Shown here piece by piece: positions 4,089-44,313 of a DNA stretch of 61,806 nucleotides (within the stretch, counting starts at the first letter, position 1; every line of letters begins with the position of its first letter). The DNA is taken from IMG/VR virus record IMGVR_UViG_3300035154_000018, positions 1-61,806 of that record, one strand, 5' to 3'. The position numbers and the translations under genes were made by a program. Below the pieces are notes generated by a model that had not been told where the DNA came from, did no database searches, and worked only from the letters and a program-made list of their open reading frames with translations. Origin of the DNA: a virus. Its lineage: Duplodnaviria > Caudoviricetes.

Positions 4089-4628
4089 CTATAGGGCTCG
4101 TCGGAAGATCTGACCGGTCGGCCACACGTACGTGTTGTTGTGCATGGAGAGCAAGAGTTGCTCATCAAGAAGCCCATGGACTGTCGAAGCGTGCATGGAA
4201 CTCTTGTAGATCTCGAAGGTCTCCACGTCTTCGACGGGTTCGTCAAGGGTTATGTGATCGTCGGTGAACTGCACCATGTAGCGACGGGCAAACCAGAGCG
4301 GGCGCCACACGATGTTGGTGTAGTGGTTATTGGTACGATCGCCGTCGAGATGCACGGGTGTACCGAAGTTGACGTTGCTGTGCTCGGGAACGAAAGCACA
4401 CGCCACGAGAAGCGGCAGTGCTCTCTTGGACTGGACGGAACGACCACGTTGCTGGTTATAGGACATGAGTCCCACGATAGGGAGATCATGCGAATTTCTC
4501 GTGGCCGAGATGATGACACCTGACTCGTCATTGCGTACTCTTCCCCAAGAGCTGACCGAGTATGTGGGGAAGTTGCTTATCTCTCTCCATCGCTCTGCAT
4601 CGGAGGAGAACGGCGCCTCGTGAGTCAT
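4089..4628 (-). CDS. NUMOD4/HNH homing-endonuclease-like protein
   Basis: WREI..FPTYSVSSWGRVRN (NUMOD4) and HLDGDRTNNHYTNIVW (HNH). Confidence 0.8.
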   Translation of the reverse strand: MTHEAPFSSDAERWREISNFPTYSVSSWGRVRNDESGVIISATRNSHDLPIVGLMSYNQQRGRSVQSKRALPLLVACAFVPEHSNVNFGTPVHLDGDRTNNHYTNIVWRPLWFARRYMVQFTDDHITLDEPVEDVETFEIYKSSMHASTVHGLLDEQLLLSMHNNTYVWPTGQIFRRAL

Positions 4629-4711: not shown

Positions 4712-5068
4712 GTCACTTTTCTTGGAAAAACCCTAAAAACTTTTTTATAAAACGCTTCAGGGTATCTAATACCTACCCATTAGATACCCTAGGGGGGAGT
4801 ATTAAAAAAGTTTTTGACAAATTTTAGTGGAAAGTGACAGGAAAACAGGGTGGTTATGTCCGAGTTTGACCGAGAGTGTTGTTAAATGTGAGCCGAAAGC
4901 AGGGTATCTAACTTGGGCAATTTTTGCTTTTCAAAAAATGGGTATCTAACCCAAGCCTTTCCTCCTTCAACCCCGATTTTCAGCGGCTGAGCCAAAAGTG
5001 ACAAGCAAATGTCACTTTCTAAAATAAAAGTGACATGGAAATGACATGGCTCAGCCGCTGAAAAGTGA
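4712..5068. repeat. AT-rich palindromic region, candidate replication origin
   Basis: Nested inverted repeats centred on about 4775; perfect 18-bp inverted repeat 4977-4994/5047-5064; repeated AAAGTGAC and GGGTATCTAA. Confidence 0.6.
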
Positions 5069-6709
5069 CGATAATTTGAGCTCATTGAAGGTTTCTTTGG
5101 CCTGCAACGACCGTTCGATGGCCTTGTCGATCCACGAATCTGACGTGAATTTGTAGTACCACAAGTCTTGGAACGGAGTGTTCAACCGGTCGATTCGACC
5201 CTCTGCTTGCTCGGTAATCTTCCACGAATAGTTCAACGAGTACATGATCTCGGCGTTAGTCTCGACGCAATTCCAGCCCTCAGCGCCGGCTGTGTACTGC
5301 ACAAGATATACCCAAGCATCGCCCGTCGGCACTGGTTGATGCTTGTGACCATTCCACTCAGCGATTGTCGTATCCACCGAGAGGTCTCGCAGAGCCTCCA
5401 ACTCGTAGTTGAAGTTGTAGAATATAATCAACCGAGGATGCTCAACCAGCATGGAACGAACCATCATCAGCCGGCTGAAGTCGCTGTTAACGACCCGTCG
5501 AGCGACCGCACACATCTCCGAAATATCGCGCAACGGCCGGTTCTCGTAGGGATTCCACCGCTGTTTCAGGACCTGCTCGAGCTTTTCCTTGTCGTACTGA
5601 CAGGTCACCTCGACATGCCGGCGCTTCGTATGTCGCTCGAATGGCATGTGTACAAGAAGATTGTTGCGATGCCTCAGCAGCTTCCCCGTGTTGATGTACC
5701 GGTCCACCTTGGGGAACTTGGTGAAGGTGTTGTAGACCACGTGCTCGCGCTTGAACTCGGTCCGGTTCTTGTAGAAGTTGTTGGCGATGAAGACGGGGAC
5801 ATAATCCATCCACGTATCACCCGGCGTAGCACTCAGTAGAATCCAGTTATTTCGTCGAGATATACGTAGGAATGCCTTCGTCCATTCCCCCGACCCAACG
5901 AGCCTTTGTTCGTCGAAGATGAAGAAGGCTCCTTCGACGCCGGCGTACTTGTTGATGTTGTTCCAGCTGTCGACGGTGAGGACGTAGGGGAAGACTCCTG
6001 CTTCTCCGATAGCGCTTGATTGAGTTTCTCCGCCGCTATCTGAGAATTCTGATAAATCTCTTCCTTGCTCGGAAGATGTTCTCCCAAGGGCTTCACCCGC
6101 CCTGGCATATCCAGCATCTTCCGCAGTCGTTCCGTCGAAAGAAGCCCTGCGGAGTGCAATTGTTCCAGATCCTCGAACGTCGGCTGTTTCCGCAAGGAGT
6201 GTGCTCGTACTTTCGACACCTCGTATGAAACCTGACCCGACAAGTATGCGATCATGATCCTCTGATAAGGCTCGATCTGGTCCTCCCAGACCTTGTGGCG
6301 CTCCTTCTTTCCCTCGTCGTTCTCCACCTCGTAGTAGAATCCCTTCGCCGGATTCCAGAAGTCCTTCTCGTCCATCCGCACGAAGATGATCGTCGACCAG
6401 TCCGGCTCCGGAGCTCCCAGCTTTGCGCCGCTTACGTTGAGATACAGCGCCTGCAGCAGCTCCGTGGTTAGGGCCAGTTGCCGGTCCCACTCCAACTCGG
6501 TAGAAGTCGTCTTGCCAGTCGCGGTCGTCTCGCTTCTTGGCGGTTGTGATGACGTAGACATTCTTCGGCGCCTCGTTTACTAGGTAATATGTGGTGGCTA
6601 CCGGGGTCTTCCCTGACCCAACACCTCCGTAGAGGATCTTGCCATTTGTGAGAGCTGCAAGAGCTTTCTTCTGATGCGGCTTGAGGTAGTCGAGTGCGTA
6701 CTCAATCAC
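5051..6709 (-). CDS. SF2 (SNF2-like) DNA helicase with a large insertion
   Basis: GVGSGKT (Walker A), FIFDEQ (Walker B), LSATP, GAEGWN, QAEGRIDR; GTG start at 6709; about 160 aa Gly/Arg/Ser-rich insert between motif Ia and LTVDSWNN. Confidence 0.85.
   Translation of the reverse strand: MIEYALDYLKPHQKKALAALTNGKILYGGVGSGKTPVATTYYLVNEAPKNVYVITTAKKRDDRDWQDDFYRVGVGPATGPNHGAAAGAVSQRKRRKAGSSGAGLVDDHLRADGREGLLESGEGILLRGGERRGKEGAPQGLGGPDRALSEDHDRILVGSGFIRGVESTSTLLAETADVRGSGTIALRRASFDGTTAEDAGYARAGEALGRTSSEQGRDLSEFSDSGGETQSSAIGEAGVFPYVLTVDSWNNINKYAGVEGAFFIFDEQRLVGSGEWTKAFLRISRRNNWILLSATPGDTWMDYVPVFIANNFYKNRTEFKREHVVYNTFTKFPKVDRYINTGKLLRHRNNLLVHMPFERHTKRRHVEVTCQYDKEKLEQVLKQRWNPYENRPLRDISEMCAVARRVVNSDFSRLMMVRSMLVEHPRLIIFYNFNYELEALRDLSVDTTIAEWNGHKHQPVPTGDAWVYLVQYTAGAEGWNCVETNAEIMYSLNYSWKITEQAEGRIDRLNTPFQDLWYYKFTSDSWIDKAIERSLQAKETFNELKLSSLFSG
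5833..6561 (-). CDS. Putative nested out-of-frame gene inside the helicase
   Basis: Alternative frame open for 242 codons; protein-like composition from about 6495 to 5995; true start uncertain. Confidence 0.55.
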   Translation of the reverse strand: MSTSSQPPRSETTATGKTTSTELEWDRQLALTTELLQALYLNVSGAKLGAPEPDWSTIIFVRMDEKDFWNPAKGFYYEVENDEGKKERHKVWEDQIEPYQRIMIAYLSGQVSYEVSKVRAHSLRKQPTFEDLEQLHSAGLLSTERLRKMLDMPGRVKPLGEHLPSKEEIYQNSQIAAEKLNQALSEKQESSPTSSPSTAGTTSTSTPASKEPSSSSTNKGSLGRGNGRRHSYVYLDEITGFY

Positions 6710-7031
6710 TCGTGTACCCGTCGTGTTCCTCGAGCATCTTCCACAAGCGATCAACAGCCTCGGGCGACCACGGCCGGCCTCGATCGCCTTCCATGATTCG
6801 CTTAGGCGCTGTGCTCATGACGATCTGCTCGTATTGGTCGTCCTGCAAGAACTCGCTGACGCGCAACTCTTCTTGGATGTGCGTATTTTGCCATCGCGCA
6901 TATTCATCCATGGGATTTGCCATGAGCATCTGCATGTAGAAATCGCGCTGTTGCTCTTCCAAGGTCTTCTTGGGAATCGGAACCACGATCTTGTCACTAC
7001 GATATGACAAGGCCTTCTCCGGCAGATCCAT
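6702..7031 (-). CDS. Hypothetical protein
   Basis: 109 aa ORF coupled to both neighbours. Confidence 0.7.
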   Translation of the reverse strand: MDLPEKALSYRSDKIVVPIPKKTLEEQQRDFYMQMLMANPMDEYARWQNTHIQEELRVSEFLQDDQYEQIVMSTAPKRIMEGDRGRPWSPEAVDRLWKMLEEHDGYTSD

Positions 7032-7303
7032 CAGATCAACCCTCGATTCCGTCGGTCGTTCTCCAGGCGCCCTCGAAGGAGACTGTATTGTGCTCCTTCG
7101 AGGGGAGCCACTTTCATCACCATGTCCATGATCGCGTCTAGATTCGTCGACTCCATCTCGGCGACGACCGTGCCTAATCCGTCATCGCCATATTTCGTCG
7201 CATCGAAGACGAGCAAGCAGAAGATCTGCTTCGCCGGATCCCAGTTGACGATGCCCTCGTGAGCTCTGTTCGTCATAAGTAAACCATACGTACGAGCTTT
7301 CAT
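7031..7303 (-). CDS. Hypothetical protein
   Basis: ATG at 7303 after GAGGAG; fills the gap. Confidence 0.7.
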   Translation of the reverse strand: MKARTYGLLMTNRAHEGIVNWDPAKQIFCLLVFDATKYGDDGLGTVVAEMESTNLDAIMDMVMKVAPLEGAQYSLLRGRLENDRRNRGLI

Positions 7304-43405: not shown

Positions 43406-43428
43406 TCTCTGGCCTCCCTTCGGTCAGA

Positions 43429-44313
43429 TCAGACGTACGTGTAACCCCAGTCGGTGTCCACGTTGGCCGGAATGCGGTAGCCCGGCAGAGCCACGGCCTT
43501 GACGATCTTCGACGAGGCGATGACGACCGGGCCGGCCGCCTTGGTGACGCCGTCGATGGTGTACTTGATACCGGTCGTGCTCGGGATGGTGATCGTGTGC
43601 GTCCCCGAGACGAACGTGGGAACCGCCGGAGTGGCGTCGACGATCGTGCCGGCGAACATGGCGATCACGTCGGCCGGCATCGGCAGGGACGGGTCGCTGC
43701 CCGAGGTGCCGTACAGCAGCTCCTCGAGCGCCGCCAGGGCGTCGGCGTCCACGCCGGTGGAGTCGATCGTCAGGGTCGCCGTCGGCTTGTAGGCCACGCT
43801 GTCGATCGTGCCGACCTCGACGGGAGTCGTGGTGAACTCCCACGAGAAGGTGATCGGCTCCGGCGAGTCGTTGATCGTGCCATACGCCCGCTCCGACGGG
43901 GCCGCGGTGGCGCCGTAGACGAGGTGCAGCTTGTAGCCGTAGTCGTTGCCCTGCACGTCGTTGCCCAGCTGCGAGCGGTACGACAGACCGAACAGGTGCC
44001 GGCTCTGTTGACCGATCACGATGCCGCCCTCGAACGCGGCGGAACCGTCGCACTGCGCCCACTCGGGCGGGTAGGTGAAGGCCTCGATGGTGCCGCCGAA
44101 CTCCTCGGCCGAGGTCAGGTTCAGGTACTTGATGTTGTCGGCGTACTGCGGCTGGGCCTCGGCGCCCGACGGCGACTCGGTCAGGGTGACGAGGCCATTC
44201 CAGGCCACACCCGTGTCGTACACGCCGGCGTTGTCGGGGATGTAGAGGACCCCGTGGTCGACACCGGTCTCGTAAGTCCGCTGGCCGACCTGGTCCCACT
44301 GGAGCTGGGTCAT
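43429..44313 (-). CDS. Major tail (tube) protein
   Basis: Very high GC3; YETGVDHGVLY, YADNIKYLNL; C-terminal accessory domain. Confidence 0.85.
   Translation of the reverse strand: MTQLQWDQVGQRTYETGVDHGVLYIPDNAGVYDTGVAWNGLVTLTESPSGAEAQPQYADNIKYLNLTSAEEFGGTIEAFTYPPEWAQCDGSAAFEGGIVIGQQSRHLFGLSYRSQLGNDVQGNDYGYKLHLVYGATAAPSERAYGTINDSPEPITFSWEFTTTPVEVGTIDSVAYKPTATLTIDSTGVDADALAALEELLYGTSGSDPSLPMPADVIAMFAGTIVDATPAVPTFVSGTHTITIPSTTGIKYTIDGVTKAAGPVVIASSKIVKAVALPGYRIPANVDTDWGYTYV

Follow-up and report, generated by a model that had tools for sequence, protein, structure and literature searches.

Does a phage helicase gene that harbours a second open frame on the same strand yield two proteins from the same bases, and how could the helicase accommodate it? 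The locus lies in a complete 61.8-kilobase tailed-phage genome of soil metagenome origin, IMG/VR virus record IMGVR_UViG_3300035154_000018, whose positions 1 to 61,806 are the whole stretch analysed here (the window) and in which terminase, portal and capsid genes are identifiable. A sequence-only reading had described a protein-like gene lying out of frame inside an uninterrupted helicase gene. This description stands: the helicase open reading frame (ORF) has 567 codons, a 242-codon ORF sits wholly within it on the same strand in the +1 frame, and the protein sequences quoted in that reading are present. We consider it rather probable that the locus is a long-lived dual-coding region, in which the helicase is read through as a disordered loop and an internally initiated nested gene uses the other frame. 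The features on which the argument rests are these.

5051 to 6754, minus strand: Snf2-like "DNA helicase" ORF (frame A), 567 codons without interruption (ORF list, tblastn, AlphaFold2 and Foldseek).
5833 to 6561, minus strand: nested +1-frame ORF, 242 codons (ORF list, alignment and twin sequences).
~5999 to 6469, minus strand: lineage-specific, putative dual-coding segment of about 157 codons between motif Ia and TVDSW (alignment, codon GC content and AlphaFold2).
6470 to 6502, minus strand: 5' edge kept in the helicase frame, YRVGVGPATGP (alignment).
5978 to 5998, minus strand: 3' edge kept in the helicase frame, GVFPYVL (consensus G-x-Y/F-P-W/Y-V-L), directly before TVDSWNN (alignment).
6571 to 6574, minus strand: GAGG, 9 nucleotides before the nested ATG (6561-6559), a possible ribosome-binding site made of the helicase codons N-E-A-P.

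Compared with the helicase of Streptomyces phage RosaAsantewaa, the window gene has about 157 extra codons between FYRVGVG and VLTVDSWNN. Alignment with related phage helicases, which the sequence-only reading had proposed as a check, places the ends of the insert proper at ~5999-6469, within an anchor-to-anchor span of 175 codons (5978-6502). Over these 175 codons the guanine plus cytosine (GC) content at the three codon positions of the helicase frame is 0.73/0.59/0.36 (0.72/0.60/0.35 over a slightly narrower span), vs. 0.52/0.44/0.65 and 0.50/0.36/0.72 in the flanks and a genome coding pattern of about 0.50/0.40/0.70. The helicase-frame pattern is abnormal in the segment, and therefore the normal coding pattern belongs to the +1 frame. 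Neither of these two frames contains a stop over the 175 codons, and the third contains five. Hydrophobic residues make up 17% of the segment and Gly/Pro/Ser 32% when it is read in the helicase frame, vs. 32% and 17%, respectively, for the +1 reading. The AlphaFold2 model of the helicase shows residues 75-231 (~5996-6466) as a coil without secondary structure, between the motif Ia helix and the TVDSW strand, with predicted local distance difference test (pLDDT) values of 34-49. The roughly 160 stop-free helicase codons that had looked like a shadow frame are thus real, with the wrong codon signature and a predicted coil to match.

The insert is single-copy in the window genome, and no convincing terminal inverted or direct repeats were found around it. 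An independent contig covers the whole gene with 60 substitutions and no gaps, which excludes an assembly error. A nucleotide motif at the 5' edge, GGACC-N7-GGNCC (6471-6487), is not enriched (two matches; 18 of 100 shuffles do as well). As a separate observation, comparison with a 97% relative gave 38 differences in 5051-5909 and none in 5910-6297, which is most of the dual-coding segment, among the 40 of 120 difference rows listed; if real, this difference-free stretch may reflect double constraint or recent recombination.

The host gene is a working helicase. GVGSGKT, DEQR, SATPGDT and QAEGRIDR are all present in the ORF, as expected of the Snf2 family of helicase superfamily 2 (SF2), which combines two RecA-like lobes with Walker A, DExx and motif VI. 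Its AlphaFold2 model has a confident two-lobe core (pLDDT of at least 90 over 287 residues), for which Foldseek returned the INO80, SNF2h, Chd1 and ISWI ATPases (E 7e-13 to 1e-10, probability 1.0), and phmmer against the PDB gave weak INO80 matches. Differences in the core fall at codon positions 1/2/3 in the numbers 18/17/57 between the related loci L086 and L088 and 41/27/87 between the window and L086, and in a hand check of the C-terminal part nearly all listed differences from the 97% relative were at third positions. The core is under purifying selection on both sides of the insert. By tblastn, 256 phage records annotated as DNA helicase match the gene. Details of these homologues come from the 40 of 256 matches listed, from Streptomyces, Rhodococcus and Curtobacterium phages with 46-62% identity; because they span only 1140-1245 base pairs, none of these 40 cultured-phage helicases has the extra segment.

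Is the arrangement peculiar to the window? Homologues of 460-750 residues were numerous in the 5.8 billion proteins searched. Among 124 stored proteins, 87 helicases had locatable motifs; 41 of the 87 carry some 30-200 extra codons at exactly the same place (site 1), and 36 of the 87 carry a further insert where the two lobes meet, following FYNFNYELE (site 2). Read in the helicase frame, the inserts are unalignable save for the edges G-V/I-G-P-x-S/T-G-P and G-x-Y/F-P-W/Y-V-L, with site 1 rich in G/S/R/D and site 2 rich in S/T; hydrophobic residues make up 15% of 42 site-1 inserts vs. 40% of the core. DNA loci of five further bearers were retrieved by means blind to openness inside the insert, namely tblastn (L003) or a DNA pattern for the 3' edge (L083/L086, L084/L085, L087 and L088). 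Stops are absent from both the helicase frame and the +1 frame of the site-1 insert in all six DNA loci (window, L003, L086, L085, L087 and L088) and number three to nine in its third frame; the coding GC signature lies in the +1 frame. The claim of the sequence-only reading that both frames are kept open over the same bases thus holds well beyond the window.

The number of stops that chance would have left can be estimated from local off-frame densities. In five loci 5.5-9.6 stops were predicted (Poisson probability of none, 7e-5 to 4e-3), and for the four relatives alone 7.4-9.6 (7e-5 to 6e-4). The L087 insert, of only 67 codons, is uninformative for stop avoidance. When the nested frames of L003, L086, L085 and L088 were shuffled synonymously, the helicase frame stayed open in 0 of 20000 trials. 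In the window itself, where off-frame stop density in other genes (0.031-0.037 per codon) predicts about 5.5 stops in the segment, a fraction of 0.0011 of 20000 shuffles stayed open. Twenty nested codons there end in T and none of them is followed by AA, AG or GA, though 28.6% of codons begin so.

Protein conservation points to the same frame as codon usage. With each frame aligned independently and the conserved helicase edges trimmed, the +1 frame gave z scores of 40, 16 and 18 among L086, L088 and L003, the helicase frame 11, 1.5 and 3.3, and the third frame 10, 2.3 and 1.2. A conservation confined to the helicase frame, with stops in the nested frame, had been named as the finding that would speak against a nested gene; the opposite was found. 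Both frames therefore appear, from these comparisons, to be under selection, the helicase frame for avoidance of stops and the nested frame for its protein, as protein conservation and codon signature suggest. The nested protein would at the same time be evolving very fast: between L086 and L088, 14.5% of helicase-core residues differ vs. 53% of nested residues, and the window nested protein is unlike those of L003, L085 and L086 (z ~0).

Searches with the nested protein returned few relatives. Three 242-residue variants, 98% identical, come from three assemblies. A word search of 5.8 billion proteins gave just the 98% twin, and phmmer against 1.8 billion representatives gave the twin, P0124 and P0123 only. 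P0124, of 276 residues, is itself another nested ORF and matches over 80 residues with 38% identity (E 4.6e-5); P0123 is a repeat protein and was rejected as a spurious match. All homologues found for any nested protein are themselves nested, as their off-frame helicase tails show. There was no match in 50,697 phage records (tblastn), a pattern search of IMG/VR found none, and the ESM Atlas offered only unnamed or low-confidence viral clusters for the nested proteins. The public protein collection (JGI/IMG, Logan and ENA) does hold the window's nested 242-residue ORF, and its search returned no helicase more than 76% identical to that of the window; gene callers seem to have taken the nested frame and to have dropped or split the window's helicase.

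The layout is also inherited. A quick maximum-likelihood tree (IQ-TREE) was built from 72 helicase cores with the inserts cut out, leaving aside rows in which any of four anchor motifs was missed. All site-1 bearers but P0068 fall in one clade of 36 rows (support of 100 in the Shimodaira–Hasegawa-like approximate likelihood ratio test), and all 36 rows carry the insert. The layout is therefore old and fixed in the lineage, not sporadic. P0068, available as protein only, lies outside the clade with a 136-codon site-1 insert; it may have gained this insert independently, or its long branch may be misplaced.

Of the 36 clade rows, 31 also have the second site, which is missing from the window. 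It was located at L003:2877-3572, at L084:11025-11744 (the same contig as L085) and in L086, L087 and L088. Across these five loci the helicase frame is free of stops vs. 2.0-8.9 expected from local controls, and the coding signature lies in the +2 frame, which holds small conserved ORFs with motifs such as GWLAEPIRETIIG and WFEDDNGILWEF. With frames aligned independently, the +2 frame gave z scores of 4.5-10 in four of five pairs and 2.7 in L003/L085, and the helicase frame 0-4.2; synonymous shuffles expect just 0.15-0.75 stops here, too few to inform. In L003 the nested frame has a stop followed by an ATG four codons on, and in L085 it has several stops, so that by their sequence the site-2 nested ORFs of these two loci appear to be separate cistrons and not a fused domain. 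Other kinds of insert occur at this site as well. Residues 550-623 of L084:10733-13117 (minus strand), within its second insert, make up a DUF4326 domain (Pfam E 1.9e-25) that is in frame with the helicase and has out-of-frame ORFs on both sides, and in a few non-clade helicases the second site holds a PF10686 domain, likewise in frame.

How would the nested ORF be started? In the window about 20-25 of its N-terminal and 47 of its C-terminal codons are conserved helicase sequence read off-frame. Across the six loci it opens 25 or more codons ahead of the anchor, where the conserved helicase codons (R/N)-E-A-P-(K/R)-(D/N)-V are read off-frame, and ends 38-47 codons past the insert (47 in five loci, 38 in L003). 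All six have an ATG (four) or an adjacent GTG (two) with GAGG or GGAG 6-9 nucleotides upstream. An equivalent start occurs in at most 10 of 37 scored loci lacking the insert, among which the nested off-frame is open in 11 (37 of 79 such loci were scored, the motif regular expressions having missed the other 42). The enrichment of starts among insert bearers has a hypergeometric P of ~0.001, computed by hand for loci that are not phylogenetically independent, the clade being one lineage. The earlier statement that the nested frame has no strong ribosome-binding site accordingly calls for a qualification: GAGG does stand 9 nucleotides before the nested ATG, but it is made of conserved helicase codons. 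We infer that both products are made, that the nested ORF is probably started internally at ATG 6561 and that the loop would be harmless to the helicase.

Several observations weigh against this interpretation. For the window alone openness is only moderately unusual (roughly P 0.004-0.04), and the open helicase frame is compelling only when the relatives are added: an open frame occurs in 343 of 8427 175-codon control windows (4%), and the synonymous-shuffle test is anticonservative, about 26% too optimistic in the window genome, since 36 control ORFs used for calibration gave an observed/expected ratio of off-frame stops of 0.74, with 6 of 36 reaching p<=0.01. Long open off-frames do occur here by chance, as a 291-codon Arg/Gly/Pro-rich shadow ORF at 43424-44299 (minus strand) shows, which runs the full length of a probable tail gene (43429-44313, minus strand) in another frame. 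Being related by descent, the six loci are only partly independent of one another, and since the 42 long helicases were retrieved as called ORFs, their openness owes something to the way they were found. The site-1 insert contains neither a start nor a stop of the nested ORF's own in any of the six loci; the GAGG and ATG, being built from conserved helicase codons, should not count as independent evidence; no promoter-like site was found ahead of the nested ORF; and the conserved nested residues start exactly at the 5' edge, as might equally be expected of a translational fusion. In alignments optimised for the nested frame, amino-acid change is 53% in that frame vs. 58-63% in the others, near saturation. 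The nested proteins match no family in Pfam or PHROGs, and the window's folds poorly in AlphaFold2 from a three-sequence alignment (mean pLDDT 40, predicted template modelling score 0.20).

The calibration set also shows that off-frame stops in the (3,1,2) frame are depleted genome-wide relative to synonymous shuffles, which points to a bias at codon junctions or to mild but widespread selection against such stops. Around the helicase itself, the ORF finder placed the start at TTG 6754; GTG 6709, which overlaps the stop of the upstream ORF (TGA 6704-6702), is the more likely start. The gene adjoining the helicase downstream (4089-4628, minus strand) has a NUMOD4 motif (E 2e-6), as in homing-endonuclease-like proteins, and in phage RosaAsantewaa an HNH endonuclease likewise follows the helicase. 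One further feature lies between the two genes.

5009 to 5036, minus strand: terminator-like hairpin just past the helicase stop codon (sequence scan).

The closest described system is the ShiLan domain of mycobacteriophages, an insert in methylase genes that has no stop in the host frame and encodes an HNH endonuclease in another (PMC11855218). As there, the host gene is conserved, the insert as read in the host frame lacks structure and is presumed to form a loop that the protein tolerates, the second protein is read from the same strand, and neither intron nor intein is involved. The ShiLan protein, however, can be recognised as an HNH endonuclease, and its frame has a GTG of its own 18 base pairs inside the insert and a TAA of its own at the insert's end, whereas no endonuclease is recognisable here and the ORF both begins and ends in flanking helicase sequence. 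ShiLan has the disjunct distribution expected of homing, whereas the helicase insert is fixed in a whole clade, varies from about 30 to 260 codons, is accompanied by a second site with further nested ORFs and in one relative contains the in-frame DUF4326. Of four features that define ShiLan, the helicase locus thus shows only the stop-free host frame. The same group has reported inteins with out-of-frame or antisense homing endonucleases (bioRxiv 10.1101/2025.01.02.630785; 10.64898/2026.09.14.751524); they likewise have a stop-free host-frame linker over a gene in another frame, but the whole element is removed by protein splicing, and the helicase has no splicing domain or junction residues. 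A selfish homing cassette of the ShiLan type, its host frame kept stop-free to limit damage and its nested ORF an unrecognised homing endonuclease, would have a direct precedent in actinophage methylases (PMC11855218). The fixed insertion point with conserved edges, the high diversity of nested sequences at one site and the NUMOD4 endonuclease-like gene just downstream would suit it too. We nevertheless find it improbable, as the distribution is not patchy (36 of 36 clade rows, for which one origin is enough), no nested protein has a nuclease family match or motif in Pfam, PHROGs or the ESM Atlas, the nested ORF, unlike that of ShiLan, neither starts nor stops within the insert, and protein and phage-record searches found no free-standing homologue.

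The flush 5' junction invites another explanation, in which a programmed +1 frameshift at the 5' edge and a programmed -1 frameshift at the 3' edge would build the nested frame into the helicase itself as a folded insertion domain. Insertion domains are common at this position in helicases of superfamilies 1 and 2 (SF1/SF2), the nested frame runs from edge to edge without its own start or stop in six of six loci, its conserved residues begin right at the 5' junction, and nucleotides are conserved at both edges. Such a fusion, one of the three outcomes that the sequence-only reading had allowed for, seems unlikely to us even so: inspection by eye, with no frameshift-site program run, showed neither an X XXY YYZ heptamer nor a known +1 site at either edge of the six loci; strong stop avoidance in the helicase frame is not something a fusion would demand; the internal stops with restart in the site-2 nested frames of L003 and L085 could not be read by it; and we know of no precedent for two efficient frameshifts in one gene. 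About equally unlikely is a relic: a piece of a foreign gene would have come to lie in the wrong frame within a tolerant loop, would by accident have contained no stops, and would have lost, or never had, translation of its own frame. A frame that looks like an ordinary gene but lacks its own start, stop, promoter or strong ribosome-binding site is what a relic would leave, and the poor AlphaFold2 model and the absence of a known family agree with one. A relic accounts badly, however, for a nested frame open in six of six loci while the third frame has three to nine stops, for protein similarity that survives only in the nested frame among diverged loci, and for a codon signature kept across a clade whose cores differ by up to ~23% in protein. 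The last alternative, that the segment is removed or skipped as a self-splicing intron, an intein or by ribosomal bypassing, would explain why a conserved gene is interrupted at a fixed site, and the insert RNA folds slightly better than shuffles (z -2.3, not persuasive). It is very improbable nonetheless. With Rfam, region 5000-7200 produced chance-level matches only (E<=10) and the loci of five relatives produced no match with E<=0.1, a search that could miss divergent cores; at ~30 codons, some inserts could not accommodate a group I or II intron; neither an initial Cys/Ser nor a final His-Asn is present in the helicase frame (junctions ...GP|N/V/S... and ...YP(W/Y)|VLTV) and Pfam found no Hint domain, in keeping with the earlier statement that intein ends and obvious intron structure are not visible; the coding signature is out of frame over the entire insert, against an intein; there is no stop after a take-off codon, unlike in T4 gene 60; and the open host frame, needless if the segment were removed, is open everywhere.

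Overprinting with a tolerated loop is thus the best fit among the three outcomes originally proposed. In the dual-coding reading, ribosomes translating the helicase would pass straight through the segment in frame A, adding a disordered loop of ~157 residues between motifs Ia and Ib, and the sole demand on frame A would be the lack of stop codons. The same DNA in the +1 frame would encode a separate, fast-evolving protein, from an ORF that would open at a start codon with GAGG 6-9 nucleotides upstream, in conserved helicase codons, and close 47 codons past the segment. The notion of a gene inserted into the helicase survives in part: both frames are open, whereas a pre-existing gene is not borne out, the ORF having no start or stop of its own and its homologues all being nested. 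Birth in place is therefore no less a possibility than capture.

Nested genes as such have good precedent. In phage lambda Rz1 lies wholly inside Rz, on the same strand and in the +1 frame, and both are functional; their products act together in lysis and Rz is structured throughout. The helicase locus resembles this pair in having one ORF wholly within another, same strand, +1 frame, and differs from it in that the shared part of the outer protein looks like filler, a lineage-specific addition. Large in-frame functional insertions between the two RecA lobes are known from the Snf2-family ATPases INO80 and SWR1. These share the Snf2 fold with the phage helicase, and the second site of the relatives likewise lies at the junction of lobes 1 and 2; unlike them, the window insert is elsewhere, between motifs Ia and Ib, and it is not in-frame protein as theirs is. 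Overprinted viral genes (reviewed in PMC8227390, PMC6195259) also have two proteins on one DNA, with one frame disordered and compositionally odd. It is usually the new frame that is odd, the old gene retaining its structure, whereas here the old helicase gene holds the odd frame and the orphan is well-behaved. No description of this helicase arrangement was found in the literature searched, and where the ShiLan paper (PMC11855218) names helicases, it does so in a different connection.

Should both frames prove to be translated, few same-strand dual-coding regions known from tailed phages would be as long or as widely inherited as this one, which extends over ~470 nucleotides in the window and up to ~800 nucleotides in relatives, at two sites and throughout a helicase clade. 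The usual polarity of overprinting would be reversed, since an old essential gene provides the "junk" reading and an orphan gene the well-behaved one. Such a locus bears on the origin of orphan phage genes, on how a motor ATPase tolerates a disordered insertion and on the translation of internal out-of-frame ORFs. It also matters for annotation, in which gene callers choose one frame and either the helicase or the nested gene is silently lost.

It is tempting to go further, though only tentatively, and to see both variable loops of the clade as cradles for new genes. A loop that needs only to be free of stops would liberate the other frames, and nested proteins might have been born by overprinting from off-frame ORFs already open in some insert-less helicases (11 of the 37 scored) and then have diverged past recognition, as quickly evolving accessory genes housed within an essential early gene and serving perhaps in counter-defence or in taking over the host. 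Should this prove true, nested genes would be expressed along with the helicase and hard to delete, and phages would possess a general means, not described so far, of giving rise to orphan genes and sheltering them.

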